Notes: generated from the letters alone by a model not told the origin. A stretch of 64,000 nucleotides of DNA from Patescibacteria group bacterium (GCA_031539225.1 JAVKLJ010000003.1:11069-75068); one strand, 5' to 3'. Positions 296-61,246 are shown, counted from the stretch's first letter. Numbers and translations are program-made.

Positions 296-374
296 TGGAG
301 CGGGGGAACGGGTTCGAACCGTCACACCCAAGGGTTGAAGCCTTAGTACACTCACTCTTTTATGTTACCCCCGC
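296..374 (-). tRNA. tRNA with anticodon UCA (reads UGA) and Gly-type identity elements
   Basis: Hand-folded cloverleaf. Acceptor stem GCGGGGG/CCCCCGC, T-arm GACGG-TTCGAAC-CCGTT, anticodon stem TAAGG/CCTTG, loop CUUCAAC (U33, anticodon UCA, A37). Discriminator U73 with G1:C72, C2:G71, G3:C70. Short variable loop and encoded CCA. The D-loop lacks an obvious GG. Confidence 0.85.
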
Positions 375-407: not shown

Positions 408-481
408 TGGAGGCACCTGCCGGAGTCGAACCGGCCTCCAAAGCTTTGCAGGCTTCTGTATGACCGCTCTACCAAGGCGCC
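408..481 (-). tRNA. tRNA-Cys (GCA)
   Basis: Acceptor stem GGCGCCT/AGGTGCC, anticodon stem GAAGC/GCTTT with loop CTGCAAA, T-arm GCCGG-TTCGACT-CCGGC, discriminator U, encoded CCA. Confidence 0.9.
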
Positions 482-9985: not shown

Positions 9986-10813
9986 ATGCGAAAAATACTC
10001 TCCTATAGCGTGATTGCTATCCTCGCGATGCACATCACTGTGAGCTTCTGAAATGCTGAAGAAAACATCGATCTCAATTCTGCGCCCATCGAACAAGTAG
10101 CTCCTATATCTGATGGAAACGGTGGTACATATAGTACTTGGGAACTCATGCATCGGACATTTATGCTCGATGGATTTACATGGACAGGTGTCGTCGCTGA
10201 ATATATTACTCCACATATGTGGACAGGAATATCAGATATCCTTAGTATAGACAATGGGGCAATATACCCTCTCGAACCAACAAACTATACTGAGTGTGTA
10301 CAATTCGAGATGAACGCTTCATTTGGAAGTGATGGCTCTATGATAGAATCAACACCAACTGCCGAGCTCAAAAACCTCGCAAAATACTGTGCAACAGAAT
10401 TCTATGGTGACTACTTTAGTGGGAAAAAGTATACAACTCGTGAAGAGATGACTATGTTCCTCCTCACAGCTCTCGGGGAAAATGTCAGCCTCGAAGGTGA
10501 ATTTGTAGATGGAGCATTTGTCACAAATGGAACTGAAACAGAAACTCCATTTAACAATGTCGTCAAAACTGCATGGTATGCGCCATTCCTCGCTCGTGGA
10601 ACTGAGGTAGACCTCCTCGCATCGACTCCACCTCGTTGGAATACTGCCCGAGAAGTATCAGATACTGATATTATGAGCATGCTTCAAGGATACTTTGGGA
10701 CAGATGAAAGTGATATAAATAATCTTGTAAAGGCATTGATTTCTACTAACTGAGTATTACTCAATGCACCAACTCCTATTGAGAGTACAAATACTGGGGT
10801 AATTACACAATAG
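9986..10813 (+). CDS. secreted protein with an SLH-like segment
   Basis: Signal-like MRKILSYSVIAILAMHITVSFGNA. Contains KYTTREEMTMFLLTALG. Track ORF 10148-10753 is extended on both sides through TGA. TAG stop at 10811-10813. Confidence 0.55.
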
Positions 10814-10878: not shown

Positions 10879-11928
10879 ATGGAACTCGCAAAATTCCTCA
10901 CACTCATGGACACAGTTATCGACAAGCAATTTTTCGATCTCCATATCACTCCAAACAGTTCTCCATATGTGAGAAATAGTATGTGAGAGATTGTGCAAAT
11001 GACTGAATTTGAAGTCATATCCAATGAGGATATCAAAGAAATTTGTACAATGCTCCTATCTCGTCCATTTACCGAACGCACCCTCGATATTTCATTTGAA
11101 TATAGAGATACTCGTTTCCGTGTGAATCTCTCACATATCCTCAGATGAATTAGTCTCACATTTCGTATGATACCGAGCGTGATACCATCGGCTGAGGAAA
11201 TAGGCCTTTCTCCATATCTCCTCGAACTCTCGCTCTCAGAGAAATGAATCATCCTTATCACAGGACCGACAGGAAGTGGAAAAACTACGACTATGGCGAC
11301 GATGATAGAGTACATCAACGCTCATACAAAAAAACATATCGTCACACTCGAAGATCCAGTAGAATTTGTCTATAAAAATAAACAGTCTCTCATACATCAG
11401 CGGGAGCTCGGAAAACAATTTGATACATTCGCTGATGGTATCAGATCAGTGCTTCGTGAAGATCCTGATGTCATCGTCATCGGAGAAATGCGTGATCTCG
11501 CAACGATAGAAGCAGCCATCACACTTGCAGAAACAGGACACCTCGTCCTCTCGACACTCCATACAAATGATACTGTGCAAACGGTAGACCGCATCATACA
11601 ATCATTCCCTGCTGGTATGCAAAATCAGATTCGGATGCAATTTGGACTCTGTATGCGTGCTATCATATCACAAATGCTTCTTCCGAAAAAAGATGGAAGT
11701 GGACGAGTTGTAGCAAGAGAAATCATGCTCGCAGATGACTCAGTTCGTAATCTCATCATCCGCGGAGAAACTCAAAACATGTACTCTGTACTCGAAATCT
11801 CAAAGCAAAAATGAATGATGCTCATGGATGATGCAATCATCTATCTCTATAAAAAATGATTTGTTGATAAAAGTACTCTAGAAGTCACGATTCGAGATAG
11901 AAGTCGTCTAGAAACTATGCTCGGATAA
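10879..11928 (+). CDS. pilT: type IV pilus retraction ATPase PilT
   Basis: EKGIILITGPTGSGKTT (TGA at 11245-11247), IVTLEDPVEF, DPDVIVIGEMRD, TGHLVLSTLHTN. Confidence 0.9.
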
Positions 11929-12025
11929 ATAGATAAAACACGAACCAATTTTCATGTCAAGCGAAAATGATTTATATTTCCGCTTCTCCATGGATTTTTT
12001 CGTGTTTTTATGGTACTATAGGGGC

Positions 12026-15000
12026 ATGGCAAAGGTAAAAATCATACTCGCCTATATTACTCTTCTCTGTTTTTTCTCAACTGAGGGGATTTTACCGATT
12101 TTTGCTGATGAGTGAATAGAACTCCATTCACTCGATGAACTACCGAGTTTTCATAAAGAAATAGATACGGCTCTCGATAGTATGGAAGAGAAAACTACCG
12201 AATGAGAGAAAGAAAATACAACAATACCAAAAACCGAAGAAACTGAAACGACATCTCAGTTCATCGTCGAATGACTTCCAAAATACGACGAAACAACAAA
12301 TCTCGATGCATGGTTTGACAATATGAGTGCTCTTGTGCGCATGGGGATAGTAAAAAGAAGGATCATAAAATCTCTCGGACTTCCATGAGACAATAGCATC
12401 ACGGTAAATATCGTAGATGGAACTGAGATACGAACAAAAGACTTCGAAAAAGTACACCTCGATACACTCACAGTAGATGCATCAGCAAAAGAAAAAGCGA
12501 AAAAAACATTTCACTTTGGTCTCACAGGTAAACATCTCATATTTTCAAAGGCTGTAGAAATCAAAGCAAAAGTATCAGCAAAAGATGGAGAACTCGTAGA
12601 TATACAAGTAAAACATGCTGGAGATAAAAATTTTAATACTGCAGGGCTCTCGACTCATATCGAAACCAGCTGTAATGCAGACTGAAGTGCGAGCATCCCG
12701 AGCTCAAGTGCAATGGTCGAAAATGGAACTATTACATTTTATACCTGTGGAGCGAGTACATTTATTCTAGGTGCATGAGGCGCTGGATCATTATCTCTAT
12801 GGTTTCAAGCTGGGTCTGGTATGACTCTATCAGGGACAAATCTATCATTATGGAACGACCTATCAGGAAAATGAAACAATGCAAGCCAAGTAACGACATC
12901 AGCACAACCAAAATATGTAACAGGTGTAGTAAACGGAAATCCTATAATTCAGTTTAATGCAACGACACAATATATGCAGGGTACAAAAACAGGGACTTAT
13001 CAGACAGTGTTCGCTGTTAGAAATCTTCCCACTACAGGGTATCAGTATCTCTTCTCAGCTCCTGCATTATCAGACTTCTCCATAAGGGCAGCTGGTGGAT
13101 ATAATGGAACATCTGTTATGACATACACCGACGGACCAAATGGTTGAGATTGGTCTTTTGGATGAACTCTTGCAATAAATAGTCTTATAACAAATACCGG
13201 GAAAGTATGATATCATATTATCCGGGATACCTCTTCCTCTCCAGTTTCGAATACAACTTATTCAATCAGTAATACATTTATGTCTCGATGAATGACTGGA
13301 TGAGATTGAGTTGCAGAAATATTAGTATATTCAGGAACACTCAGTGCTACAGGGACAAATCGTATCGAATCCTACCTCGCTCTCAAATATGGTATCACTC
13401 TCGATCAGACAACAGCAACAAACTATACCCTCTCGGACGGCAGTATCGCATGGAATGGTACAGTCGCAGGAACATATAAAAATGATATTGCAGGTATCGG
13501 GCGAGATGATGCTACCACGCTCAATCAAAAGAAGTCACAATCTATAAATAATCCTGGGGATATCATAGTGGAAAGTACTGGGGGATTTATAACAAATCTC
13601 AGAGTTCTCTCTTGGGCAAATGATGGAACTGCCACAGGAACATGGATCACCTCAGAAATACCAACGACGAATCTCATGGGACAAAATGTCTATTCTCGAA
13701 TCGCTCGAGAATGGAAATTCCAGGAACCAATAGCAGATATCGGTGGGGTAAATATCTCATATCCAGTAACAGCTCTCCCTAGTGGTGGAACTGGAAGCAT
13801 ATATATGCTTGTGGATTCAGATGGAAATTTTTCAAACGGAGGAACGACATTTGTAGCAGGTACTCTTTCTGGTTCAAACTATGAATTCGCGACAAATATC
13901 ACCAATGGATATGTGATTACATTTGCACAATCAACTGGTATAGATCTCTGGCTCAAGGCAAATTCAGGAACAAATTGTAGTACAGCATCATGTAGTGTCT
14001 TATCATGGGTTTCTCAAAATGGGAAAAAAGCAACAGGAACAAACAATCCTCTCTACATAACAAGCTCATCTGTATTCAACTTCAACCCTTCTATAAGTTT
14101 TAATGGTGCTGGAACAAGTGGAACACCAACAGGAGCATACTTTTCACTTCCATCTGGATTCGACAAGTATAGTGCTGGTCTCACTACATATGTGGTCGCG
14201 AGACCATCTAGTACAAATAGTTACGCAAGGTTTTTTGACTTTGGAAATTGAAGTTCATCAAATAATATTGCATTATTTAGAGTTGGTACAACTGATAGTT
14301 TATGATATACATCATATCCTGGAACAACAGGAGTGGGAGATATTACAAGTATAACATGAGTTATCGTAAATAATCAAACAAACATATTTGGTGCTCGCCA
14401 AGCAAGCCTCTCTACAAACGCTAGCATGATAAAAAATGGTAAAATTATAACAAACGGTACTACTGGAATAATTGGAAATGTCACTCGTACGCTGAACTAT
14501 ATAGGGCGGAGCAACTGGAACGATGCAATGTATGGTGGTGCAATCGCTGAAATAATTATTTATAATAGAGATATAACTGCTGTGGAAAGAAATAAGATTG
14601 AAACATACCTCGCTCTCAAATATGGTATCACCCTCGATCAATCAACAGCAACAAACTATACCCTCTCAAATAATGGAAGTATTGCATGGAATGGAACAAC
14701 AGCAGGAACATATAAAAATGATATTGCAGGTATCGGGCGAGATGATGCTACCACACTCAATCAAAAGAAGTCACAATCTATAAATAATCCTGGGGATATC
14801 ATAGTGGAATTCACCGGAGCAACATTACTCAATCTCAGGACTCTCACCTGGGCAAATGACTGAACAGCGACAGGGGCATGGATAAATACTGAAAATCCTC
14901 CTGGATATAAACGAATAAGCAGAGAATGGAAATTCCAGGAAGCACTCGGGGATATATGATCAACAAAAATATCATATCCAGCAAGCTCTATACCCACATG

Positions 15001-15880
15001 AAGTACTGGATCAATCTATCTTTTTGTCGATATTGATGGAAATTTTTCAACTGGTTCAAATGTCGTAACTGGTTCACTTGTTGGAGCTAACTATGAATTT
15101 GGGATAAATATGGCAAGTGGGAGCTATGTTACTTTTGGATACAAAGATCTCACTCCCCCAATCATTAATATATCTGGTGTATCAAGTGGATCACTCCTTC
15201 CTATAGGCAACTGAGCCATAAACTTTATATATAGTGATGCTGATTCAGGTATTTCAACAGGCTCACTCTCTGTAACTCTTCAGCGATATAATAGCACACT
15301 TCTAGCCTATGATAGTGCCACGGGATGACTCACAGAATCATGAAGCCGTACACAAAGCGGATCGATATGGAATATGAACAATATTGGGTTTTGAAAATAC
15401 AAACTCACAGCAACTATAGCTGATAAAGCCTGAAATACTACGAGTACAGGAATAGTATTTTTCATAGATCAGATAGAATGGACGATCGACAGAGATACCT
15501 ATAATGTATGAGATATTTCTCCGGGAATATCGACATTTGGAACTGGACAGATAACGATAACTATAAAAACAGTATGAGCAGGCTTTACACTCTCATCGAC
15601 TTCTGGAAATTCTCTCGCATCAACAGAATCAAATAGTATCAACTATTGGAATGGAACAAACGGATGGTGATATGATCTGTGGAATGGTTCAGCATGGACA
15701 AATACTATCACGAGTCACTCACCAAATGCCACACTTGCAACAACTCCAGCAAATCTCAATCAAAATGGAGACAAAAATACTTATACATACAAAATACGCT
15801 ACGGCACAAAGCTCGATGAAATGCAGTCGGCATGACAATATATCGGAACAGTAAATTTTCAGATTGGAGTTTCTTACTAA
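12026..15880 (+). CDS. 1284-aa exported protein with two LamG/concanavalin-like (Laminin_G_3-type) modules and a C-terminal Ig-like region
   Basis: Signal peptide MAKVKIILAYITLLCFFSTEGILPIFA. The hallmark AEI(L/I)(V/I)Y(S/N)..(L/I)...(G/E)(T/R)N(R/K)IE(S/T)YLALKYGITLDQ occurs twice. The length is divisible by 3 and in frame with track ORFs 13568-14251 and 14426-14863. Many in-frame TGA. TAA stop at 15878-15880. Confidence 0.75.
13373..13573 (+). repeat. intragenic direct repeat, copy A
   Basis: About 200 nt that is roughly 90 percent identical to 14606-14809, including two identical runs of more than 50 nt each. Confidence 0.85.
14606..14809 (+). repeat. intragenic direct repeat, copy B
   Basis: Partner of 13373-13573, offset 1233 nt (411 codons), with a 3-nt indel. 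Confidence 0.85.
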
Positions 15881-15893
15881 TATCATTTAAAAA

Positions 15894-16817
15894 ATGCCTT
15901 ATTCTCTCGCAAAAAATAAGGAAGGCTCAGCCCTCCTCATATCACTCATAGTGCTCGTACTCCTCTCACTGGCAAGTACAGTCTTTGTTGAAAAAGTATG
16001 GAACTTTAGCAAAGCAAGTACAGGAATCAAAGATTCGAACAGGGCCTATTATTTTTCACTCTGAACCATAGAAGAATCTCTCATGAATCCAAAAGTTACA
16101 AAATATAGCCCATGGACTGTGAGTGCAACGGGAATTACACTTCCAGCACCAGATAACATCATCAAAACTCTCACGGTCTATACCGGTGGAACAAGCGTAC
16201 CCGATATCGATAAATGAAACAGTCCCTTTGATAATGATTATAATATCATTTCTATGGGATCTCCTGTTCAGCTCGTCATACCTGACTGAGTGAGTTGGGA
16301 TAGTGTAAATTTTATATTTCGAGTACCAAACATCCCAGGGACAACATCTGGGACAGGACTTGCAAATATATCATCAAACTCATGAATGATTCTTTGGTCT
16401 ATAGGATATACAGGCGCTACCCTTTTTGCAAACGGAGAAGCAAATACATTCAAAAAAAGTAATATTTGAGTATTTACAAGTAATACAATCTCGAGTTTTC
16501 AAGGTATAACAAACTGATGAACGAATACTCAATTCTCCACATTCGTTACAGATACGAATTGACTTTGATCAAGTGGAGGAAAATGTATCAATTATAACTG
16601 TATTTTAAAACTCTCTCTCATTCGACCTGTCATACTCAACGATGGACGAACTGTACCATTTCTCGAATATAAGATAGCCTTTGGCACAACGACAATTCCA
16701 GCACAGTATATGATACTCGAAAGTAATACTTATGCAGCCTGATATAGGAGAACAAAGACTCTCAAACTTCCACAAAATACATCAAGTACTGCCCTTGACT
16801 TTGCTGTACTCCAATAA
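15894..16817 (+). CDS. PilX-N-like pilus-associated protein
   Basis: N-terminus MPYSLAKNKEGSALLISLIVLVLLSLASTVF...SNRAYYFSLGTIEESL resembles the PilX N-terminal helix. Starts 14 nt after the giant gene. TAA stop at 16815-16817. Confidence 0.55.
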
Positions 16818-16822
16818 AATCT

Positions 16823-17785
16823 ATGGAAAAAATACTCATCAACGAAGCATCTGATAGCAGTCAAAAACTCGAAAAATTTATCAAAAAATACCTCCCAAAC
16901 GCACCACTTGGAGGTATTTATAAGATGCTACGAATATGAAAAATAAAAGTAAACTGAAAGAAAAAGGAAAAAAATTATACACTCGAAATGGGTGATGAAA
17001 TATCGATTTTTTTGGGTGATGACGAGCTTCTCCAGTATAAAAAAGGTGAAAGCCTGAAACCAAGATGAAATACACAAACAAAGGGCTTTTCTATACTCTA
17101 TGAAGATGAGCACCTCATGGTAGTAAATAAATCAAGCGGTCTCAATGTCCATCCAGGAGATCATAAATCGGATGAATCATCTCTGATCGAACAGGTTCAG
17201 GATTCTCTCGGGAATCAGTATAATAGTCTCACATTTCGCCCATCGCTCGTCCATCGCATAGATAGAGAAACAAGCGGATGTGTCATGATAGCAAAAGATA
17301 AGCAAAGTCTCGAATCCCTTCTCGAAGAGCTCCAATGACACAAAATAGAAAAGATATATCATGCCATCATCATTTGAATACCGAAAGAAAAAGAGTGAAC
17401 TATCAAAGCAAAAATAGAACGCATCGAAAATGCAAGAAATGAAGCCAAGGTACAAATCAGCGAAAATGGACAGAGTGCTACAACACACTATAGAGTATTA
17501 CAATCATTCGCGGTCTGAATCTCGACAGCATCACTCATAGAATGTCGCATCGAAACAGGTCGTACGCACCAGATACGAGTCCACATGAAACATATAGGAC
17601 ATCCACTCTGCGGAGATAGAGCATATTGAGATAAAGGGATGAATAGTTTTCTCCTTCGAGAATATGCTCTCTCCGGTCAGCTTCTCCATGCTCATAAACT
17701 CATATTTACCCATCCGAAAACAGGAAAAAAGCTCGAAGTGACAGCACCATATCCTGAGAGTTTCGAAAAAATAATACAAAAATAG
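16823..17785 (+). CDS. RluA-family 23S rRNA pseudouridine synthase (S4 + PseudoU_synth_2 domains)
   Basis: [15 protein letters not shown], catalytic [10 protein letters not shown], and [10 protein letters not shown]. Confidence 0.85.
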
Positions 17786-17829
17786 TACAACAAAAAAACT
17801 TCTCCAATAAGAGAAGTTTTGTTTTTTTC

Positions 17830-17913
17830 TGGTGCCCAAGATGGGACTTGAACCCACACACCCGAAGGCATACGCACCTCAAACGTACGTGTCTACCATT
17901 CCACCACCTGGGC
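17830..17913 (-). tRNA. tRNA-Leu (GAG)
   Basis: GCCCAGG acceptor stem, long variable arm, loop TTGAGGT, T-arm GGGTTCAAGTCCC, encoded CCA. Confidence 0.85.
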
Positions 17914-17982
17914 AAAAAATAGAATTACAAAGTTTGGATTGTGTAGAAAATTCCTGAGGTTGAACTTTCATCGAAAACTTTA

Positions 17983-18058
17983 TGGTGCACCCAGTAGGGT
18001 TCGAACCTACAACCAACGGTTTCGAAGACCGCTACTCTTCCAATTGAGCTATGGGTGC
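17983..18058 (-). tRNA. tRNA-Arg (UCG)
   Basis: GCACCCA acceptor stem, anticodon stem GCGGT/ACCGT with loop CTTCGAA, T-arm AGGTTCGAACCCT, encoded CCA. Confidence 0.85.
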
Positions 18059-18125
18059 GAGGCTTTCCTACTTTGGAAATGCCTGCGGATTATAGAGAAT
18101 ATGGAAAAAAAGGCAAATGTTTTTT

Positions 18126-18581
18126 CTATTTTTTAAATGTTGCAATAATTCATTTCTCAAAAGTTCAGAAAATTTGATTTTTTGTAGATTGAAAGCTCTC
18201 AATTGAAGAAATATCATATCATAAATCTAAAATTTTTCCCGCAAATTCGCTTTTTTGTTCCTGGAGTTTTTTAGCTCATGAAAGACCTAATACAGATGTA
18301 ATGCGAATAAGATTATCATAAGGGGTAAGAACATCTCCAGCCTCTTCTTCTGCCTTTCACCTAAAAACCGGAAGATATAATCACTTCTGTTCTTGAGATA
18401 TATCCGATTTTAGCCATGTTTGATAAAAATAATGTGCATTCCAAAATTCTCGAAGTTCCTCTTGTATCTTTCTCTCAAGAGTATCAATATGTTCACTTAC
18501 ATCATTAACAGTTCTCCAATATATCGGAGCATTGTTTTTTTCAGCGATTTCTGGGAGATTATCCCGTATCAGTTTTTCCAT
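18126..18581 (-). CDS. MazG-like nucleoside triphosphate pyrophosphohydrolase (tentative)
   Basis: MEKLIRDNLPEIAEKNNAPIYWRTV...LERKIQEELREF resembles small MazG-like NTP-PPases. Track ORF 18381-18581 is extended through several TGA to TAG at 18126-18128. Confidence 0.45.
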
Positions 18582-23310: not shown

Positions 23311-26300
23311 TTAATCGGAAAATGCCTGTCGAATATATTTGAGTCGGGCGTCTGATATTTTTTGGAATGCGATATTGAGAGTTGTCGATTCAAGTGTCGA
23401 AATTTGAAGATTTCGGCGTTTTGTATCAAGAGCATGGAGGGCAAAATCATATCCGAGGAGCTTTTGTCCACGAGTCATGCCATGGCTGACTTTTACTATA
23501 ATGGGGTCAACGAGATATTTTTGTGCGTTCTCTGATGGTTTCTTTTGACTATCATATTTGACACTCTGAAGATAGGAGAGGATAGCGTGTTTTTGGAGAG
23601 AAACGATAACTCCATCAACAGATGAGAGGATATTATTTGAAGTTGAGAGTGCTGGTGAGAGGGACTTATTCAGGATATTTTGGAGAGAAAGTTGAGCAGA
23701 ATAATTCACAACAGTACTTGTGGGTCAACCTGGACCACCTCAACCACCCCCTCATCCTATAGATACAATAGGATTCACTGGTGAAGTTGGATTTCCGAGT
23801 GCAAACTGAGAAAAATGATTCGTCGTAAAACTACATACCCCAGCTGTCACAGTACATGAGCCAATATCCGCAAATGAATCACCTATAGAATCGGAACGAT
23901 ATACTCGCATTATGATACCGTTTGGCTGAGAAGTCTTGATGTCGATATTTGCGAGTTGCCCTGAGAGTGCAAGTGGCGTTGAGGAGCTTCAAATTTGATA
24001 CAATGAATCAGCTGTAATGACGCTACCATCTATAAGACGAATCCCTGTATTTGTCGAAAGAAGTTCAGGTGACTGAAAGAGTCAGTCCCAAGATCAAGAA
24101 GCACTAATAGTAAGCCCACTGAGTACTAGCTGAATAGTTGCTGTACTTCCGGAATCTGCGAGAATCAATTTCTGTGTTCCAGTATTTGTGTATGTAATAC
24201 CAGTTGCCGTACTTCCAGAAAGGTATAAGGTAGTTCATGAAGCGATAATATTTCCAGTATTTGAGAAAGAAATAGGTTTTGGTGTATGAAATGAGCTATA
24301 TTCGAAACGAAATCCTGTAGAGTATACGAGACTATTTGCTGTAGCATAATAGTAGTATGTTGTATCTGGTTCAAGTCAGAGAATATCGATTTTTCCTATA
24401 TCATCAGCCGTATAGAATGAATGAGTATCTGTGACATCTTTCAGTTTTGCCACACAAACAGTAGTTTGATACGAGTGCCAAACTTGTAATGGGTCCATCA
24501 ACATTGGCATAGCATAGACTGGACAACCTTCATTCATTATTGATTGTCCGTAACCAGCATATTCACCTGTTCAGAATGAACTACTAATATATCCTGTTCC
24601 GGTAACTGGGCTTTTTCATAAACTCAGTAAAATCATTTTATAAAATTCAGCATTTGTAATAGTGGCATTTGGCCGAAATGTCAGAGTAGCTAAATTTAAT
24701 ACTCAACTTTGAGAAAGAGATTCTATATACCCACAGACATCCCCTATTGAACTTGTTACATCTATAAAAATATTTCCAGTACAAGCTGTTGGCATATATC
24801 CTCATACTTTTGCAATCAACTTTGCAGCTTCTGCACGAGTCATATTATTATCTACTCCTGTTTCAGTATTTGATGATAGCATACCATTCGCAAAGAGTGT
24901 TTCAATCTGCGGAAGGATTCATGATGTTCCAGAAAAATTTTTATTCTTTGAAATGAAAAACTCTTTTCAAATAGAACCATTTTTTATAGAAGCATCTATC
25001 ATAGCTTTTGCACCTGATTCTCCTGAAAGCGTAATTTTTATAGAATTAATAGTAGGCTTCTCGAGTCACTTGAGCATATTTGTGACATTGAGTCGACCAT
25101 ATATTACTTTACTCGCAAGTTGTGACTTGTAGTCACTCGACCAGAGAATTGCATTTCTGATATCGGCTATACTCACATTTGGTGCATAGCTCATAGCAAG
25201 TGCGGCAGCACCAGCGACATGAGGGGCTGCCATGGAAGTTCACTGAAGAAAATTATATCATCCTGATTCTCCATTATCAGTTCGTTCAACAAAAAATCAG
25301 CTTGTAATTCTACATCCGCCATAATACCTTCCAGTAGCAGGATCTATATCATCTATATTATCACTATGCCATCAGAGACGGACTTTAAATGTTGAATTGA
25401 GAGTATCGAAAAGATTTATACTCACATATGCGCGGACTCCTTCGCGTCCATCGAGAATGGCACCAGTCGCCCAAGATTCACTCCAAAGGGAATCCTCATC
25501 AATTTTTTTATCTTCTACATATCAATTTCCTGAATCATGTCATATAGATACATAATCTTTCCATGTTCATGTATTTGGAGTATCACACCAAATAGGTATA
25601 GACGCTACATAAGCAGACTTCATTCCACTTGAGGTAAATATTTTCTCTATATAAGCATTGGAGCCAGAAGTATATAGTGGCTCTCATGAGAGGGTAGTAC
25701 TTAAATCGTCCATAAAAAGATATCATCCATTTCAAAGGGATCCACTATTCATAAAGAGTATTCATGAGTGAGAAGCGTTTGTTTTTACCCAGCCGTCTGT
25801 CATATAATCAGTTTCAGAAGACACTGTTCGGTAAGTACTATAAATACTCGTTCATGGTGCCGCTATATGTACAGTTCCTGTACCGTAATTTGAAAAAGAT
25901 GCAAGATTATCATTCTCATCAGAAGCCGCTACAGAAATAGTATTTTGAAGTCAAGGATAAGTCACTTCACCTGAGAGGATAGCCTCACCTGATGCATTTA
26001 TTCATTCACCAGAAACAGTAAGTGAAGATCAAAATCATGCTGGATAAAATCTCCCAGTATCACTATTAAATGAATCATTTCCAGCTGCGGCAATAAATAA
26101 TCCAGGAAAATTCTGAATTGTCTGATAAGTAAGGTAATCAAATTCACCTACAGTTTTAGGAGTATATCATCATGCCCCGAAACTCGCATTAATTACCTTT
26201 GCACCATTATATCGAGCAAAATTTATACCTCGAATAATATCACTCGTACTACATCAATTATTACATACCTTCACTGCCATCAGAGTAACATTTGGTGCAA

Positions 26301-27339
26301 TTCAGACGATACCAGTACCATTATTTGTGATGGCTCATATAGTTCCCGCAACATGGGTACCATGTGAGATATATTTTCATTCTTGAGGGTCTATATCTTG
26401 ATTGGCAAAATCATATCCATGCATACATCCACCTACATATGCCCCTGTATCTGAGAGACAGTTTTGTCCGTTCCACATATGTCCTGCGAGATCAGGATGA
26501 TTGTAGGCTATACCTGTATCGAGTACCGCGACGATGACTCCCGTTCAGAGTTTTCCACTTGCATAGTTCATCGCCTCAGGATAGTCGATATCTGCATCTG
26601 GAGTACCAACAACTCATTCGACAGATTGTCCTTCATTATGCAGTCACCAAAGTTTTCAAAAGTCAGGATCATTCGCTGACTGTACAGTATAGATAAAATT
26701 TTTCTGTACATGTTCTACTCGTGGATCTTGTTTTATTTGCTCAATCATCGTTTCGATATTTCCAGAACCTGTATCAATAGTAAAAGAATCTGCAAGCTGA
26801 AATGATGAGTTCACAGTTTCAATAGGAGAAATCTCAGGTGTAACGACGACGATATTATTTTCAGATATTGTCTCAGTTATCTTTATATCATGATTGGAGG
26901 TAAAAGTATCTACCTGATATTGTCCAACCATCGTATCTATATCAGTCTTAAACTGGACGAGAATCTCATTCTCTGGTGCTGTCTCTGATTTTTTCACGAT
27001 ATTTTGATCTATGAGGATCTCACTTCCTGTTTGTGACACTATTTCATCAATAGGAGATGATACCGTCGATACTCCAGATGAAGTAGTTTCTGGAAACGAC
27101 GAACCAGTCTCAGTAAACCCAGTATTTGTTTCGAGAATCTCACCTGTCGAATCAGATACATCTGGCATGAGAGTTCCTGTATCAGTAGGAACTATCTCTC
27201 CTGGGAGATTTTCCTGAACTATGGAAGATGATCCAGAATCGGTTATTTCATCTGCCCATACGAGCGATGGAATGAACATATTTCACAGAAAAACAGTCAG
27301 TGCAATCTCTGCAATAATGATACGAAAATATCGAAACAT
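23311..27339 (-). CDS. 1342-aa secreted subtilisin-family (S8) serine protease with a long C-terminal extension
   Basis: Signal peptide MFRYFRIIIAEIALTVFLGNMFIPSLVWA. Catalytic motifs in order: VAVLDTGI (about 26500), SHGTHVAGT (26356-26370) and GTSMAAPHVAG (about 25215-25242). The two terminal track fragments (23311-23709, 26656-27279) share one frame. TAA stop at 23311-23313. Confidence 0.85.
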
Positions 27340-27342
27340 AAA

Positions 27343-27375
27343 AAAGTGGAAAAGTAATAACTCTTCCACTTTGCC
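27343..27375 (-). terminator. terminator-like hairpin after nusA, abutting the protease start codon
   Basis: Minus strand: AAGTGGAA, 12-nt loop, TTCCACTT, then TTTTT, then the ATG. Confidence 0.5.
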
Positions 27376-30532: not shown

Positions 30533-32971
30533 TTATTGAGCACCGATACGATAAATGATTTCTTTCTCGACGAATTCACGCTCTCGACCATACTTGAGCC
30601 GAGAAAGTTCCCTCAAAGCGTTTCATACCACGACATCTCATTTCTCGAGCCATGGGAAAGGGACATTCAGAGAAAACCCGGGACTTGGCTGACCATCGAT
30701 AGAAAGCTTGATAGCAGCCTTGAATTTATCCATATTTACAAAGTCTTGGTCTGAATAGACTGGAGCAAATTGCTTTGCCATCATTTCAGCATCTTCTGGA
30801 CCTATTTTATAACTCATAATTGTTCCCACATTTCCAAATATTGCGTCTTTGAGATTCAGATTGGATTTCGTGAGAGAGTCGGATTTTTGGAGTTGACCGA
30901 GGTATTGATGAGCCATGACGAGACCGAGGCGGTATTTACGAGCTTCTGAGAGGATGGATTCAATAGAATCCGTCACAAAGTTTTGGAATTCATCGATATA
31001 GAGAAAGAAGTCTTTTCTTTCAGTTGATGCCATATTTTGCCTGCGCATCGCTGCAATTTGAAATTTTGAAACGAGAATCAGGCCCAAAAGATTGGAATTG
31101 AGATCTCAGAGAGTTCCCTTCGAAAGCGTCGCAAGAAATATTTTTTCATGATTCATGATATCGACGATATCAAATGCGCTCTTCGTCTGTCCGACGATGT
31201 TTCGCATCATCGTATTCGTGATAAACTGACCAAATTTCGCAGCAAAATACGGGATAATTTCCCCTTTTTCTCGTTCACCCATCTTTGCATAGGTATAGTC
31301 CCACCACGATTTTACGATAGGATTTTTGAGTGTGGTTCGGCGTTCTCTCTGGAAATTTTCATCGGTAAAGAGACGAATCAAATCCGTAATAGCTCATCCC
31401 TGAGGATAGTCCATCAGCGTGAGACACCCATTTCGAAAATAATCCTGTATTCGCGGTCCAAATATTTCGTTTCAAAAAAGCTTGATCATGATATTCGTCG
31501 CATCTGCAACGACCATCTGTTTTTCATCATCATTCGATGCTTCGAGCATATTGAGTCACATAGGACGACCCAGATCTCCCGGATCAAAATACACGAGATC
31601 ATCCGCTCGACTTTTTGGTACAAAAGGGAGAAGATCTTTTACGAGATCACCATGGGGATCTACCACCGCGATTCAGGCACCATTTGCGAGGTCCTGACGA
31701 GCCATCACTTGGATAATAGATGATTTACCTGTACCTGTCTGTCATATCACATAGAAGTGACGGAAACGGTCCTCATTTTTGATATAGATAGGCTTCTTTT
31801 CATTTCGAAAAACATTATCACCGATATAGAGCCCCTCCTTTGCGACATTGGTTGGAGACTTTACCGCTTTAAATCTCTGCCAGCGGATTTCTGGTTGTTT
31901 ATTATATTTTGAATGTGGAAAATGAAAAAGTGTTGAGAGTTCTTCACTATTGAGGATAGGTGTATGTTGCCACCATGCAAATTGACGAAAAACATAATGT
32001 CGAATCAGGAGAGAAAGGGATTTTCTTTTTACGGGCTTGAATCGATTGTATGAAGGGGATGCAAACTGAGAAAATGCTGAGATAATATTGGCAAGTTCCG
32101 CCTCTGTTTTATCGACATCATTTCCTGTAGTGATGATACGAATAGCTGTAGAATATCCTGTCTTTTTTACTTTTTCTTTCATCATTCCCTCTTCATCCAT
32201 TGGTTCATCTTCATTTTCATTCTGATTTCCATCATTTTTGAGGGATTCATCAGGAGAATGAGCGATAATTTCGATAAATTTCCCAATCCACGCAAATGGA
32301 TTCCATGAAAAACCATGATTATGTCCTCATTTTTTTTCGGCTTTTCTGATTTTTTTTCTGATAGTATCTTGCCAGTCATCGTCGACTGGACGCAACAGTA
32401 TCTGAACCACCGCGGATTCATCTTCAGAAAGTTTTGAAAGTGCCGAGAGAATCGAGTTTATACTATCTGATTCGAGTTTCTGATAAGTACGAATAGGAAA
32501 CTCATCAGATTTTTTTAGTTTCATGATTTCACCACGAACAAATTTTCGCTTCTCAAAAATATTGAGTTCTGGAGTCTCTTCGATGACACAATCAGGATAA
32601 AAACCGATAATTTGCTTCTCCATGAGGACTTTACGCGAACGAGAAAGAGCAATATAAAAATATATCTCTTCTTTATGTGCGACATATTCGAGGGAGATAT
32701 ATTCCTGACCAAAGAGCCATCACTTGAGCGTACTCGAGTACATCGCCTTCATACTCGCAAGAAGCTGTTCCATGATGGATATTTGTTCCCGAAAATCTTT
32801 TACTGTTTCTTTTTTTTCATCAAGGTCACTATCTTTTCGAGCGATGATTACTCGCAAAAAAACCATATCCACAGAACGCGCAAGTGCTATTTTCCGTCTG
32901 ATATTGAGATAGAAAAACACGATTGCGATAAGAACAAAAACAATGATGAACAAAATTTCAGAAAGGGGCAT
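30533..32971 (-). CDS. VirD4/TraG/TrwB-like type IV coupling-protein ATPase with a membrane-anchored N-terminal domain
   Basis: Five same-frame fragments joined by TGA. N-terminal transmembrane helix, Walker A GQTGTGKSS, VVDPHGDL, Walker B LYIDEFQNF, AHQYLGQL. TAA stop at 30533-30535. Confidence 0.75.
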
Positions 32972-32999
32972 GGAGGACAAAAGTTAGAGAAAAAGACGA

Positions 33000-33989
33000 T
33001 TATCCTTTGAGAATAAAGAACCGAAATATCGCATGACTCGCGACGAGAATAGTAAATCCTATAAAAATATAGAGAACCGTATGTTTTGCTTTTTTAAGTT
33101 TCTCTTCATCACCTCATGATATGAGCACTTGCCAACCAGCATAGATAACGAGGAGAACACAGAGAACTGTCAAAAAACTATTGAAATAATTGATGATTTT
33201 TGCAATGATGCCAACAGCACCGCTCAAATCCTGAGATTTGATTTCACATGTTCCGATACTAAAAAGTCCTGAATTTTTACAATTTGGAGATCCATATAGT
33301 GCTGATACGAGTGATTCTGGAATCTTTATGAGGAAAAATCCAACGAGACCATAAATAATAGTATTTTTTCATTTCTTGAGCTTTTCTTCATCTCCTGCTC
33401 AAGCAATGATAGTATAAAAGGCATAGACCGCCATCATGAGAAAACCAAAGGATGCAAGCATTTGAAGGAGACGAACAATTGGAGCAAAGAGATTTTGCCA
33501 AATTTGAAAACCAAAGGAGCTTCCAATATACACAGTAGAATCCTTTATAATCATGAGATTCCAAAAAGAAAACGCGCTTTGCATGACAAATATGCCCACA
33601 GAAACCCATATAATATTTGATTTCCACTTTTTCACTGCCTCATCATCTCCAGGAGAAAATAGGAGCTTAATAATAGCAAGAATCAGAAAGAGAATAGCGA
33701 TAGCGATAAAGAAATTTTTTACCTGAAATGCGATACTCGTAAATGCAGCGAGTATCCCTGATCCCCCTGTTACCTCAGGCGTAAAAAAGAAATCTTTGAC
33801 TGGTCAGACAAATGCCTCAAGCTGAGAATCAGGACCCACTCCAGTATCACCGATATTTGGGTTACGAAGATTGATATCATTTTGCATGCCAATCGATGAT
33901 GTCGAAACACTGATAAGCGGAGCGGCAAATACTTCAAAAGTGGAAAAGAAAAAAAGCAGAGAGACAAGAAGAGTAAAAAGAAATTTCAT
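33000..33989 (-). CDS. TrbC/VirB2-like pilin protein with three tandem pilin-type units
   Basis: Signal peptide MKFLFTLLVSLLFFFSTFEVFAAP, then three units, each with paired transmembrane helices. The units are linked by SPGDDEAVKKWK, AGAGDEEKLKKGK and SGGDEEKLKKAK. The gene ends 28 nt before the ATPase gene. Confidence 0.55.
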
Positions 33990-36351: not shown

Positions 36352-36388
36352 AATAAAAACTTCCTTGAATGCAAGGAAGTTTTTTTAT
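36352..36388. terminator. bidirectional terminator
   Basis: Stem ACTTCCTTG / CAAGGAAGT with loop AATG, flanked by an A-run and a T-run. Confidence 0.65.
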
Positions 36389-36389
36389 G

Positions 36390-37793
36390 CTACATTCATT
36401 CCATTTCCATACTGATGAGTACATTCATCTCAGCAGCGTATTCGAGTGGGAGTTCTCGCATGAGAGGAGAGACAAACCCTCGTACAATCATCGTTTTTGC
36501 CTCGTTTTCACCGATTCCACGAGACATGAGATAAAAAAGTGTATCTTCATTGATTTTTCCCACGCTCGCCTCATGTGCGACACTTGCATCATCAGTTGCA
36601 ACACGGATATCTGGTATCGTATCACTTCGAGAAAGCTGGTCGAGGATGAGTCCATCACAATCGACTTTTGAAAAAGCACCGGTCGCGGATTTTTTGATAT
36701 CAATGAGTCATCGATATATCGACACTCCGCCATTCTTCGACAGTGACTTCGACACGACTTCTGACGAAGTATTTTTTCAGATATGGATCACCTTTGCACC
36801 CGTATCTGTTTCTTGTCATGCATTGGCGAAGGCAATACCAAAGTGAAGCGCTTTTGAATTATCTCACTTGAGGACAGAACACGGATAGAGCATCGTGACT
36901 CATGAACCGAGATTTCCACCCACCCATTCGATACTTCCGCCATCTTCGACAATTGCTCGTTTCGTATTGAGATTGTAGGTATCTATCGACCAGTTTTCGA
37001 CACTCGAGTAGCGCATCTTCGCCATTTTTCCGACATATATTTCGACACACCCAGCATGGAGACTCGCGGTTCCATATTTCGGAGCGCTGCATCATTCGAT
37101 ATAGTGTGCCTCTGCTTCATCTTCGACGACGATGAGTGTATGTTCGAACTGTCCACCCGCTTTCACATTCATTCGGAAATACGCTTGAAGTGGTGCATCT
37201 ATCTTTACTCATTTTGGTATATAGAGAAATGTTCCCCCTGACCATACTGCGCCATGGAGGGCTGCAAACATATGATCCGTCGGAGGCACTGCTCGCATAA
37301 AGTGCTTTTTGACAATCTCCTCATGTTCGACAATCGCGACAGACATATCCTCAAATATCACGCCCAAATCCTGGAGCTCTTGTCTGAGATTATGGTAGAC
37401 TACTTCGCTATCATACTGCGCTCCGACACCTGCGAGCATAGCTCGTTCAGCTTCAGGGATACCGAGTCTATCAAAAGTTGATTTTATATTTTCAGGGACA
37501 TCATCCCATGATTTTTTATCTCATCCACCCTCTGCCTTGGCAAAATAGTAGATATCATCGAGATTGAGCGCATCGAGCGATGGTCCCCATGTTGGCTTTT
37601 TTGAAGCAAGAAAAACCTCAAGAGACTTGAGTCGTTTTTCGAGCATACACTCGGGTTCCTTGTTTGAGAGTGAAATCTGACGCACTACGACTTCGTTGAT
37701 ACCAGGAAGAGCGAGAGTCGAATAAGTGATATCATCACTGCGGTCAAGTGTATCACGAGAGATATCTCAGAATGCTTGTACTTCGTCTGACAT
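36390..37793 (-). CDS. sufB: Fe-S cluster assembly protein SufB
   Basis: [13 protein letters not shown]..., [14 protein letters not shown]-terminal [19 protein letters not shown]. Confidence 0.9.
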
Positions 37794-37811
37794 AGTCTAA
37801 AAATAAATAAA

Positions 37812-38546
37812 TTAATCCTGAAAACCTGTTTTTCTGATTTCTTCGACAAGATTTCTCTCACCTTGTTTTACTATCTGTCCATCCTTCATGATGATGATAT
37901 TATCGACTGTGATAGAGTCCAGGAGATGAAAATTATGCGTAATGATAATAATCGTTTTCCCTTTTTCTTTCCATGTGTCGATACTCTCTCGCAGAAAAGA
38001 AATAGCATCGATATCAAGACCTGCATCTATCTCATCGAGAATGATACATTCTGGTTCTAGGAGGGCTATCTGGAGTATCTCAATGCGTCTTTTTTCACCA
38101 CCTGAAAATCCGACAAACAGGTCTCTTTCGAGAAATGACATATCGAGACCGATATCAGGCATCATTTTTTCTATCATTCTGCGAAAGACAAATGGTGTCG
38201 GGAGTTTTTCTCATGGATGTGTATGTGTAAAATGCTCATTATACACAGTTCGGAGGTATTCCATGAGTTTGATACCAGGAATCTCTGGAATGCTCTGGAA
38301 TGAGAGAAAAATACCCTTCTTTTGTCTCTGAGCTGGTGAGAGGGATATGATATCTTCATCACGGAAAAAAATATTTCCAGTAGAAAGATATCTCGGATGT
38401 CCCATGAGAGAGAGTGCGAGAGAGGATTTTCCAGATCCATTATGACCAAGTATCGCTGTCGTCTTCCCTTGGGCAAAATCATAATTCAAAGCTCGAAGAA
38501 TCTGCTTTTCAGAAATACTTACAGAAAAATTTTTGAGAGAAAACAT
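37812..38546 (-). CDS. sufC: Fe-S cluster assembly ATPase SufC
   Basis: GHNGSGKSSL, FSGGEKRRIEILQ, ILDEIDAGLDID. Confidence 0.95.
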
Positions 38547-38633: not shown

Positions 38634-38668
38634 ACAAAAAATCCCCCCAAAATTGGGGGGATTTTTGT
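38634..38668 (-). terminator. intrinsic terminator after the S-layer-like gene
   Basis: Stem AAAAATCCCCCC / GGGGGGATTTTT with a T-run on the minus strand. Confidence 0.7.
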
Positions 38669-38697
38669 ACCGAATAATCTGTCTTATAAAGAGAGAA

Positions 38698-41601: not shown

Positions 41602-41975
41602 AGAAAAGTAGGTTAAAAAAAATAAATGCGGTAAACCACCGCGGCGGGGACAGTGACAATCTTGGTCAGAGATTATCGGGTTTTGAAATTCTCTGGTCAG
41701 GAGAATCTCACCAAGCCACTTTTTTACAAGTGGTAAGGTTAAAGCTTTAACCTCAAGTTACATACATAACGAGAGGACAGACAGGGTATTTCATGAAAAA
41801 ATATACCTTCTTTCCTCCCCTTATATAGCGGTAAAGAAGTGACCAAAGCTATTATGAGCGTGATGTTAAAGAACGCCACGACACGAAGAACGCGCCGAGA
41901 TTACGCGGAAATATTATGGAGTATTGGCTTAAAGTCAAATAAAAGTAGGTCATCTTCACTCTCATTTCACGAAAG
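41602..41975 (-). ncRNA. GC-enriched structured leader or unclassified RNA element upstream of the S-layer-like gene
   Basis: A series of hand-foldable helices: GGTTAA-AGCT-TTAACC, CCACTT-GTAAAA-AAGTGG, CTTGGT...ACCAAG enclosing CAGAGA...TCTCTG, and a long GGGGAGGAAAGAAGG...CCCTGTCTGTCCTCTC hairpin. No ORF. Confidence 0.4.
41612..41642 (-). terminator. terminator-like hairpin at the 3' end of the leader, about 10 nt (to the end of the T-run; about 26 nt from the stem) upstream of the S-layer ATG
   Basis: Minus strand: GCGGT-GGTTT-ACCGC followed by ATTTATTTTTTTT. Confidence 0.4.
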
Positions 41976-42294
41976 AAAAAATTTTTACAATAAATAACAA
42001 TAAACGCAATTCCTTTGTTTTCTGATATTTAAGAGGAAAAAAAGAAAAAGTAAAAAAAGAATTCTATTTTGTTGTTTTTTTTATACAATAAGAGAGCTAC
42101 AGAAAAGATTCGAGCGTAAAGAGAACCGAAAAAACACAATAGAAAAGAATAAAAAGAAAAATAACAATCTTCTTCCAAAAAAAACGAAACACAATTCTCG
42201 CACCCATGTGAGAGAAAGTCTCATAAGATTTTCTCTCATAAGAAAAAATCGATACTTTTTCGTATGCGTTATACTCAATAAATTTATACCCGAT

Positions 42295-43809
42295 ATGAAT
42301 CCTATACTTCTCATTACCCTCCTCGCTGGAGGCATTTCTGGCGGACTCGCTGTATACTTTTACCTTCAAAATCAACTCAAGCAAAAAGCAAAGTGAATAC
42401 TTGCAGAAGCCGAAAAAGAACGCAATGACATAATCACACGAGCCGAAGAAGTCGCAAAAAACATCCGAAAAGAGATAGAAGATGCTCGAAATGACATCAA
42501 AGACAGAAAGCAAAGTGCTCTCGAACAAGAATCACGACTCTCTGAAAAAGAATGAAAAATCGATAGAAAATATGAAGAACTCGAGCAAAAAAGAAATGAA
42601 CTCATGAAAAAAGAACAGTCTATCGAAGAGCGAATATCATCTATAGATAAAAAACAATTCGAAATAGAAACAAAACTCGAACAAGTATCAAGACTCTCAT
42701 CTGAAGAAGCGAAAGAACTCCTCATGAAATATACAGAGGAACGCTATGAAAGAGATATCGTCTCACTCATCGAAAAAAAGAAAAAAGATCTCAAGGCGCG
42801 CGAAGCAGAGATATCAAAAGAAATCCTCATCAAATCTATCCAGCAATATGCTGGTGAAGTCACTGGAGAAACGACACAAACGATGGTACAACTCGAAAGT
42901 GACGATCTCAAAGGAAAGCTCATCGGAAAGGAAGGGCGAAATATCATAGCATTTGAAAAAGCAACTGGGGTTTCACTCATCATCGATGATGCACCAGATA
43001 CAGTATTTCTTTCGAGCTTTGACCTCTTTCGTAGGTATATCGCGAAAAAATCACTCGAGGATCTCATAGCCGATAAAAGAATACAACCAGCCCGTATCGA
43101 GGAAATAGTAGAAAAAAATCAACAAGATGCAGATAAACTCATCTATGATCTCGGGCGAAAAACGATAGAAGAAATGGGAGTTATCGGTATTCCTGATGAG
43201 ATTGTTCCACTTATCGGAAAATTCAGGTTTCGTACGAGTTATGGACAAAATATACTGATGCACTCAAAGGAAGTGGCGTATATCGCTGAGGGTATCGCAA
43301 AACTCATCGGGGCTGATCCAGTTCTCGCACTCAAGGGAGGACTCCTCCATGATCTCGGAAAGGCAATGGATCATGATATCGAAGGAACTCATCCAGAAAT
43401 CGGTGGTCGTATAGCACGAAAATATGGTCTCGATGAGAAAACTATCAACATCATCGAATGACACCATGACGATGTCCCACAGATTTGTATCGAAACAAAG
43501 ATCGTACAGATAGCGGATGCCATATCAGCTGTCAGACCTGGTGCAAGACGCATGAATGTAGAAGACTATATCAAACGAATCGGAGAAATGGAGAATATCG
43601 CTATGAGCTTTCCTGGAGTAAACAAGGCATATGCACTCTCTGCTGGTCGTGAAATTCGTGTATTTGTAGATGCTGATACGGTATCTGATCTCGAAGCCGA
43701 AAAACGAGCACAAGAAATCGCAACAAATATCGAAGAAAACTGTAGTTACCCTGGTGAAGTAAAGGTAATCGTATTTCGTGAAAAGAAGGCAATCCAGTAC
43801 GCAAAATAA
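42295..43809 (+). CDS. rny: ribonuclease Y
   Basis: N-terminal transmembrane helix, coiled coil, KH domain (GKLIGKEGRNI), HD domain (LLHDLGKA ... GHHDD). Confidence 0.9.
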
Positions 43810-43846: not shown

Positions 43847-44641
43847 ATGTATCCACTTATCAACATCTCGGATTCCATACAAATTTATACATTTTGACTC
43901 TGCATGGTGGTTGCTTGGCTTCTCTTTTTTGGGATTCTCCACCACTTTGTTGCTGAAAAATGAATACAAAAACATCCTTTTGGAAATATTGTGAGCTTTA
44001 CTCTTTCAAGTTTCTTCTTTGCAAGAATTTTCTATATCCTCTCAGAATGGAGAAATGAAAAATTTATTTTTGTGAATGTGGTAGAATGATGAGGATTTCT
44101 CCATTTCTTGAGTGAATTTTTTATCACGGATACCTACAAGCTCTCACTCGCAGGGGCCATAGTAGGATTTCTTCTTGTATTTTTCATCATTACAAAACGA
44201 GATAAAAATCCTATAGAAAAATATATAGATGCGCTCGTTCCCGCATTTTTGATTATGGCTGGAATAGGGTACTTCGGCGCTCTCCTTGGTGGTCAAGTGT
44301 ATGGTATTCCTTTCAATTCTGTCTTTTCAATACATTATACAGATAAAAACAGCATAGTACCATTTCAAAATGAACTCTTTCCACTTCCTATACTCTATAG
44401 TATCTGATGTGCCTTGATATACCTCTATCTCAAAAGAATCGAAAAGAAACAACAGCCACCACATGGAACCATGGGGTTTCTCGGTATGGGCATATATGGT
44501 GTTATGCTTTTCTTATGAGAATTCCTGAATGGTTCAAGTGACATGCTCAGCTCAATTTTTTTCATAAATTTTAATCAAGTTATAGGACTGATTTTTATTT
44601 TGTGTGCATTTTTATGAATGATGAAAATAATCCAAAAATAG
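43847..44641 (+). CDS. lgt: prolipoprotein diacylglyceryl transferase
   Basis: Polytopic membrane protein. ARIFYILSEW, GYFGALLGGQVYG, FLGEFLNG. Confidence 0.8.
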
Positions 44642-44688
44642 AAAGAAAACAAACAAAAAAAGAAAATACCGCACGGATTTTCTTTTTT

Positions 44689-59568: not shown

Positions 59569-59572
59569 AAAA

Positions 59573-61084: not shown

Positions 61085-61246
61085 GAGAATATTTTAAGAT
61101 ATCCAGAAATATTATGAGAAAAATGAAAAAATAAAAGTCTTTTTTAATAAAAATAATTGTAACAAAAGTATAACATTTTGGCTTTGCATAAATAAAATGA
61201 GTGTATTCGCTTTTGCATAAAAGTATAAATTGATTATAAGTGTACC

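Follow-up and report, generated by a model that had tools for sequence, protein, structure and literature searches.

A pilT-linked giant LamG-type protein beside a candidate GspK/PilX-type minor pilin in a Gracilibacteria locus

Gracilibacteria and their relatives are epibionts or predators that are uncultured or barely cultured. Their attachment to hosts has been ascribed to 'type IV pili and giant surface proteins' only in generic terms (PMC8080830, PMC6851277, PMC11452946). Several described systems offer points of comparison. GspK, PilX and ComGG are minor pseudopilins that lack the Glu at position 5 and cap or prime their filaments. PilY1/PilC-type tip adhesins are large, Sec-exported non-pilin proteins with variable N-terminal binding modules, and PilY1 is modular and has modules in common with modular pilins (PMC8179133). 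In modular lectin pilins, such as PilC of S. sanguinis and the PF13385 pilins found also in the Candidate Phyla Radiation (CPR), a concanavalin-A-like/LamG module is tied to type IV pilus adhesion (PMC8179133). Here we analysed a stretch of 64,000 nucleotides from a Patescibacteria group bacterium (GCA_031539225.1, JAVKLJ010000003.1:11069-75068; 'the window' below), in which three consecutive genes at positions 10879 to 16817 encode a PilT retraction ATPase, a giant protein with LamG-like/DUF8202 modules ('the giant') and a pilin-like protein ('X'). Our analysis suggests that the locus is probably a juxtaposition of two separately conserved Gracilibacteria units, pilT with the giant gene and X with rluD, in which X would be a minor pilin and the giant an adhesin.

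X shares with GspK, PilX and ComGG a basic leader, a Gly, an (S/V/A)-A-L-L-I motif and a hydrophobic segment of ~20 residues. It likewise lacks Glu +5, and its ~300 aa compare with the 327 aa of E. coli GspK. In many genomes the X gene is next to one for a larger minor pilin of the N_methyl family, which mirrors the arrangement of gspJ and gspK. However, the homology stops after 21 N-terminal columns and PilX_N is unmatched. The modelled head of X is β-rich, without a GspK-type α-domain, and no GspK structure is among its fold matches. The giant resembles PilY1/PilC in being large, Sec-exported and non-pilin, and its gene lies beside a pilus gene and, in the sub-clade of the window, a PilX-like gene. 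It differs in that no β-propeller is detected and that its partner gene is pilT instead of a minor-pilin operon, and a tip location of the giant is hypothetical. Unlike the modular lectin pilins, the giant has a Sec-type signal and neither a class III signal nor a pilin module; if it were on a pilus, it would therefore be docked non-covalently and not polymerised. The DUF8202 proteins of Bacteroidota and Chloroflexota have in common with the giant a LamG–DUF8202 module and the YLALKYGITLDQ…NDIAGIGRDD signature and are 27–33% identical to it over roughly half of the protein. Most of them end in a type IX secretion system (T9SS) sorting domain (PF18962), whereas in Gracilibacteria the orthologs carry an N-domain of their own, an HSL(D/E)ELP motif and a C-terminal β-domain, and their genes lie behind pilT. 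Neither X nor the pilT–giant pairing is described in the Gracilibacteria, Vampirococcus and type IV secretion system (T4SS) papers that we searched, and no mention of DUF8202 was found in that literature.

Read with genetic code table 11, the window is broken into short open reading frames (ORFs). With UGA as a sense codon (code 25 or 4), ORFs of 100 aa or longer add up to 47.8k aa, compared with 11.0k aa under table 11. A tRNA with the anticodon UCA (296–374, minus strand), labelled 'SeC' by ARAGORN, adjoins a tRNA-Cys (408–481, minus strand). Judged by its anticodon, it is the UGA decoder expected under code 25 and lends in-window support to recoding. Conserved Gly residues of the window proteins appear as Trp in database homologs that were translated with code 4. 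The gain in ORF length, the UCA tRNA and the Trp of homologs at Gly sites together indicate that the window comes from a code-25 organism, and the related loci belong to metagenome-assembled genomes of Candidatus Gracilibacteria. Genes were called with code 25, and the start and stop codons of all three genes were checked. Homologs are numerous for pilT, the giant and X alike, and none of the three is therefore a chance ORF. Gene order was compared across 40 species-level loci and contigs from protein look-ups, among which 42 distinct X loci were counted; gene families (f numbers) were placed on these loci (L numbers) by six-frame code-25 hidden Markov model (HMM) searches.

PilT and the giant DUF8202 protein

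The pilT gene (10879–11928, plus strand) encodes 349 aa with five in-frame UGA codons and belongs to the PilT/PilU family of type IVa pilus retraction ATPases. Its product scores 366.7 bits with TIGR01420 (cutoff 319.1) over residues 7–332 of 349 and matches PF00437 T2SSE with E=6.9e-44, while the PilB and GspE models stay far under their cutoffs. It holds the Walker A motif GPTGSGKTT and falls in the ~345-aa size class without the long N-terminal extension of PilB. Orthologs are 56–98% identical to it, and a distinct paralog group is 46–51% identical. A preliminary description of this DNA had called the gene a canonical retraction ATPase, which agrees with the TIGR01420 score, and had reported no pilB, pilC or major pilin gene. 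The latter also holds, as pilT is the sole T2SSE-family gene in the window and the window contains no second T2SSE ATPase or N_methyl-type motif. Neither T2SSF nor a prepilin peptidase turned up among the window ORFs scanned.

The giant gene (12026–15880, plus strand) encodes 1284 aa with 28 UGA codons, its start having been set by ortholog alignment. The protein begins with a Sec-type signal peptide, recognised by inspection. Behind it come an HSLDELP motif and a conserved N-domain, then the two LamG-like/DUF8202 modules at aa ~285–634 and ~665–1037, and finally a Big_3_2 Ig-like domain (aa 1068–1148, Pfam) and a conserved C-terminal β-domain. Pfam detects Laminin_G_3 (PF13385) on the second module (aa 703–852, 29.5 bits against a threshold of 27.6) and does not detect it on the first module alone. 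The two modules are a tandem duplication of ~380 aa with 45% identity (E=7e-96). The preliminary description had proposed a signal-peptide-bearing giant with two Laminin_G_3-like modules, and with one Pfam match and the duplication 'two' is a fair count. DUF8202 (PF26628) is assigned from precomputed matches, which cover the window product P0081 and nearly all of the 120 homologs listed; our local Pfam copy did not return the family. Members of DUF8202 are mostly Bacteroidota surface proteins with a T9SS sorting domain, so the family of the giant is not specific to pili.

Twelve Gracilibacteria orthologs share one architecture of signal peptide, HSL(D/E)ELP, N-domain, one or more LamG–DUF8202 modules and Ig-like domains, and all close with a C-terminal strand of the form …AGxYxGxxxFxxNLxY. 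An AlphaFold2 model of the ortholog P0091 has a predicted local distance difference test score (pLDDT) of 67 overall and above 80 in the structured domains. It matches the lectin-type jelly rolls of the HC receptor-binding domains of clostridial neurotoxins, of a phage tailspike and of a carbohydrate-binding module, as well as Ig/MG-like arrays. No PilY1 β-propeller, pilin module or other pilus-related domain was found in the giant by Pfam or among the matches of the P0091 model, and a sequence search of the PDB with the giant gave nothing significant. On the basis of these models and domains, the giant is best read as an extracellular adhesin that binds a receptor or a glycan. The HSL(D/E)ELP motif stands right after the predicted signal-peptide cleavage site (window 12116–12136, aa 31–37) and is kept in 12 of 12 orthologs; it may serve in sorting or anchoring. 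We rejected the reading of the giant as a sortase substrate, since no LPXTG-type C-terminus is visible.

The linkage between the two genes is conserved. Wherever the region upstream of a Gracilibacteria giant gene is visible, in 12 loci of 12, pilT lies just 5' of it on the same strand. The two are directly adjacent in the window, L001 and L045–L048, and in six further loci (L010, L011, L012, L016, L027 and L050) a gene for a cyclic nucleotide (cNMP)-binding-like protein, f49, stands between them. The pair is kept although its flanks vary, with up302 (a putative secreted protein) or Pth on the 5' side and MgtC, X or f32 on the 3' side. Genomes also share the order of the larger block CNNM–DUF5665–FtsJ–Pth–up302–pilT–giant, most members of which are unrelated housekeeping genes. 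Some pilT orthologs come without a giant, namely those of two oral-type clades and one divergent genome, and X is retained in the giant-less clades checked (L004; L037 and L051, which are on one contig). At the PilT paralog locus (L053:9001–13580), the paralog is followed by a cNMP-binding-like protein related to f49 and then by a VirD4-like ATPase. A pair of PilT and a cNMP-like protein is thus seen beside two different large genes, the giant with the ortholog and the VirD4-like ATPase with the paralog. The presence of a cNMP-like gene behind both PilT paralogs hints at a genuine PilT-centred unit.

The spacer between pilT and the giant gene carries signals of its own. It measures 97 nt, in line with the ~100 nt on one strand given in the preliminary description. 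RNA folding reveals a terminator-like hairpin with a U-run at 11935–12008 (plus strand), with a minimum free energy of −21.8 kcal/mol and z = −4.5; none of 200 shuffled sequences folds equally well. A simple terminator scan did not pick up this hairpin. A hairpin with a T-run follows the gene preceding the giant in 8 of 8 spacers and is canonical in L045–L048 (TGTCAAGGAAAAACCTTGGCATTTTTT). An extended −10-like box, TATGGTACTAT, which is at consensus level only, lies at 12009–12019 (plus strand), 6 nt 5' of the giant ATG. A TATGG(T/C)A..AT box is conserved at this site in the window and in L046, L047, L048 and L016, and weaker forms of it are seen in L001 and L045; across the spacers the box is 6–9 nt from the giant start codon. 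With a hairpin and a promoter-like box between them, pilT and the giant gene do not form a simple operon, and the giant gene probably has its own promoter. The hexamer (T)GTCAA occurs in every spacer (window 11929–12025; L001, L045–L048, L016 and L010), also outside the predicted stem. Its reverse complement is TTGACA, and it may have a regulatory role.

Protein X and its linkage to rluD

The X gene (15894–16817, plus strand) encodes 307 aa with the N-terminus of a type IV pilin-like protein of the Glu5-less GspK/PilX type. There are 80 close homologs, and an exhaustive profile search found 505 cluster representatives, all of ~300 aa; none of the family members found in this way carries an annotated domain. 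Neither X nor its N-terminal 74 aa matches any Pfam or NCBIfam model up to E=10, and sequence profiles of X find nothing significant in the PDB. By these searches the family is new and specific to Gracilibacteria.

The N-terminus consists of a short basic leader, a Gly, S-A-[LI]-L-[IV] and a hydrophobic stretch that ends at Glu33. The Gly at −1 is present in 52 of 52 sequences (36 as G and 16 as UGA-derived W) and is preceded by R or K in 42 of them. S+1 and A+2 are conserved at 94% and the near-invariant E33 at 96%. Positions 12–31 are hydrophobic and conserved, as expected of a class III signal. In the window clade, X carries Ser +1 and Ile +5 and so differs from the N_methyl pattern of Phe or Met at +1 and Glu at +5. 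More distant family members have a G/A↓F-S-(L/I) junction (the arrow marks the putative cleavage site), with Phe +1 as in classical pilins and Glu5 never. At the junction, KEG↓SALLIS of X aligns with QRG↓VALLIV of E. coli GspK. The C-terminus of X, PQITTNTALDFAVLQ, is near-invariant and unique.

An AlphaFold2 model of P0001, which is 88% identical to X, has a pLDDT of 85 and a predicted template modelling score (pTM) of 0.76. It shows a continuous helix of 55 residues (9–63, pLDDT 90–96) followed by a β-rich head, in keeping with the ~53-residue extended α1 helix and globular head of type IV pilins. The mean frequency of the top residue is 0.67 at positions 11–35 and 0.59 in the head. The hydrophobic segment is thus more conserved than the head, which disfavours a disposable Sec signal, and the view of X as a cleaved Sec signal-peptide protein was dropped for this reason. 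X as a PilN/PilO-like protein was dropped because its junction Gly is invariant and its head is large and β-rich. By sequence, X resembles a Glu5-less GspK/PilX-type minor pilin, although it is by no test a member of PilX_N, N_methyl or GspK; it is most likely a tip minor pilin of the GspK/PilX type.

The most constant neighbour of X is rluD (16823–17785, plus strand), a gene for an RluD-type pseudouridine synthase (PF00849, E=1.5e-36, and an S4 domain). In 40 of 42 loci it is the next gene after X, at a distance of 0–15 nt and whatever lies 5' of X; the two loci without it are a contig end and a frameshifted copy. This conservation has no plausible functional basis, and adjacency here is therefore weak evidence of shared function. 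The 5' neighbours of X vary. In 22 of the 42 loci X follows a VirB4-like ATPase gene, in the order VirD4-like–SpoIIE–VirB4-like with overlaps or tiny gaps (type B), and in 17 it follows f3, a pilin of ~400 aa that scores 30.5 bits with N_methyl (cutoff 21.2; type C). At least eight of the VirB4-type loci also have the f3 block, at a distance of 4–9 kb from X. The giant is the 5' neighbour in two loci, the window and L001, which are the only long contigs of that sub-clade examined; one further locus is truncated and its neighbour is not visible. The window does contain the start of a VirD4–SpoIIE–VirB4 block at 59–64 kb, 45 kb from X, which indicates that X–rluD was relocated in the lineage of the window. 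Positions 58999–64000 hold f11 (minus strand), a gene for a Mg-chelatase-like ChlI protein (59573–61084, minus strand) and a VirD4-like/DUF8128 gene (62015 to the end, plus strand). Thirteen loci, 12 of them among the 17 of type C, have a sortase gene (PF04203; e.g. L016:11956–12882) directly 3' of X–rluD, and no sortase gene is near X–rluD in the window.

Within the window, the giant and X genes are separated by 13 nt and X and rluD by 5 nt. A terminator-like hairpin with a 10-bp stem and a T-run (17795–17820, plus strand) marks the end of a likely giant–X–rluD unit, and a tRNA-Leu and a tRNA-Arg lie beyond it on the opposite strand. The three tightly packed genes are probably co-transcribed there. 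Overall, about 10 of the 42 genomes have the giant within 10 kb of X, and they do so in three different arrangements; on one 1.29-Mb contig the two are 84 kb apart. These results bear on the preliminary description in several ways. Its third gene, placed 14 nt behind the giant gene stop, starts after the 13-nt gap as described. Its 'PilX-like' label is right for the pilin-type N-terminus, with the Gly at −1 and the N-terminal helix that it expected in models and that the P0001 model contains, and does not extend to membership of PilX_N. The conserved linkage that it predicted between the giant and pilus genes exists with pilT, in 12 of 12 loci. A three-gene adhesin module, by contrast, is not borne out, given giant–X adjacency in only 2 of 42 loci and the 84 kb between the two genes on the 1.29-Mb contig.

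Explanations for the locus

The reading that we favour, and consider probable, is that two separately conserved units have come to lie side by side. In the first unit, PilT is followed by a Sec-exported giant with its own promoter-like box behind a terminator-like hairpin, and the two LamG-type jelly rolls and the Ig-like domains would make the giant an extracellular receptor- or glycan-binding adhesin. In the second, X would be a minor pilin of the GspK/PilX/ComGG type, placed at the tip or the priming end of a type IV pilus, and would probably act with the ~400-aa N_methyl pilin f3. In the sub-clade of the window and L001, a rearrangement would have brought X–rluD into the position immediately 3' of the giant. 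Our results show the genetic code, the family assignments, the domain architecture, the synteny counts, the helix as a prediction and the RNA hairpin. What we infer is that a prepilin peptidase cleaves X, that X sits at the tip and that the giant works as an adhesin, as well as any physical connection of the giant to a pilus. Several results weigh against this reading. X matches neither N_methyl (PF07963) nor PilX_N (PF14341) at E≤10, and PilX_N matches one of 60 family members, at E=0.046. The hhalign alignment of X with E. coli GspK, confined to the 21 N-terminal columns, has a probability of 3%. Foldseek searches of the PDB with the X model gave nothing significant, the head matching no solved pilin, and that model was predicted on the 88%-identical P0001 with Trp at the UGA positions. 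No prepilin peptidase, PilB, PilC or major pilin was found in the window, and the promoter and terminator are predicted from consensus or folding energy only. Finally, the VirB4-like ATPase in front of X in 22 of 42 loci makes membership in a T4SS-like apparatus conceivable. We regard it as very unlikely that X belongs to the T4SS-like machine of Patescibacteria, with its VirB4, VirD4 and T4SS pilins, and not to a type IV pilus. Such a role would fit the position of X directly behind the VirD4-like–SpoIIE–VirB4-like genes in these loci, the two VirD4-like ATPases and the three-repeat T4SS_pilin protein of the window, and the finding that several membrane components of the Gracilibacteria T4SS have yet to be assigned near virB4 (PMC12102498). 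However, the invariant Gly at −1 and the G↓F variants are of the prepilin-peptidase type and not of the VirB2 type, a genuine N_methyl pilin precedes X in 17 loci, and the published survey of T4SS neighbourhoods contains no such component (PMC12102498).

The other alternatives concern the giant. Its place behind pilT could be inherited gene order without shared function, the giant being a free-standing or S-layer adhesin, pilT serving a pilus encoded elsewhere and X–rluD having been rearranged into the locus. We consider this possible but doubtful. It would account for the syntenic block from CNNM to the giant, with its mostly unrelated housekeeping genes, for the retention of X–rluD in 40 of 42 loci without a plausible functional tie and for the predicted transcription signals of the giant gene. 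It would also accord with the presence in the window of other giant secreted proteins (an S8 protease and an SLH S-layer protein), many more of which are known from the literature (PMC8080830, PMC6851277). It explains less well that the pilT–giant pair survives where the flanking genes differ, that the cNMP-like f49 travels with pilT and the giant in six loci and that a related cNMP-like gene is also found behind the PilT paralog. The same persistence of the pilT–giant linkage through turnover on both flanks is what would be expected if the giant were a PilY1-like non-pilin adhesin docked on an X-capped pilus tip, with PilT retraction reeling the cell to its host or prey. This proposal, which is that of the preliminary description, seems unlikely to us. 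The giant lies within 10 kb of X in about 10 of 42 genomes, a proximity that by our estimate a single pair would reach by chance ~2% of the time (assuming a ~1.2-Mb genome). Like PilY1, it has a Sec signal and no pilin module, and its lineage-specific C-terminal domain is a possible carrier module. LamG/PF13385 modules do occur on type IV pili, CPR included, as modular pilins (PMC8179133). Yet the giant has no PilY1 β-propeller or pilus-related domain, DUF8202 proteins are chiefly T9SS cargo in Bacteroidota, and a terminator-like hairpin and a separate promoter-like box follow pilT. The giant adjoins X in only two of 42 loci and is 84 kb from it on the 1.29-Mb contig, while the giant-less pilT clades (oral and divergent) still hold X where checked, and X–rluD illustrates that tight synteny need not be functional. 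A fuller version of the docking proposal, which we hold to be quite unlikely, is a new type IV pilus tip assembly of Gracilibacteria in which X, as a Glu5-less pilin with a new fold, and f3 would present the Sec-exported DUF8202 lectin giant as a functional analogue, but not a homolog, of PilY1. A dedicated PilT paralog under the control of its cNMP-binding partner f49 would retract the pilus and so draw the epibiont or predator onto its host.

Other window features and biological meaning

Immediately 5' of the pilT–giant unit, up302 (9986–10813, plus strand) encodes a putative secreted protein of ~275 aa counted from Met28, with a signal-peptide-like N-terminus by inspection and no match in Pfam or NCBIfam. 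A homolog lies immediately 5' of pilT in L001, L004, L045, L047, L051 and L052. No second X-family gene is present in the window. On the minus strand, the gene at 33000–33989 encodes a membrane protein of 329 aa in which the T4SS_pilin repeat (PF18895) occurs three times; this gene lies directly 5' of the gene for an 815-aa VirD4-like coupling ATPase (30533–32980). By its domain content, this pair (30533–33989) looks like part of a Patescibacteria T4SS-like system.

Two further large proteins are encoded on the minus strand. One, at 23311–27369, is a secreted subtilisin-like giant (Peptidase_S8) of 1352 aa that has SLH-like segments; its gene contains 42 UGA codons and is syntenic in L001. A 967-aa SLH-domain protein (38698–41601) has no in-frame UGA, which is unusual here; code-25 ORFs of similar length on its antisense strand are spurious. 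This protein is probably a highly expressed S-layer protein. A ComEC-type competence channel (44602–46161, plus strand; PF03772, E=2e-40) is consistent with proposed pilus-linked DNA uptake. ORFs at 17819–18136, 36369–38060 (plus), 38653–41616 (plus) and 42097–43713 (minus) were rejected as spurious, as they overlap a tRNA or are antisense to genuine genes. An Rfam scan of the window returned only tRNAs.

Our analysis offers candidates for the attachment of Gracilibacteria to their hosts: a lineage-wide pilin-like family with an unclassified head fold, a giant that tracks one pilT paralog and a cNMP-like partner of both PilT paralogs. If the giant were pilus-borne, it would represent a new, PilY1-independent way of arming a retractile pilus in monoderm-type cells. 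If it is not, the locus would still show, through X–rluD, that tight synteny in streamlined genomes is a poor guide to shared function.

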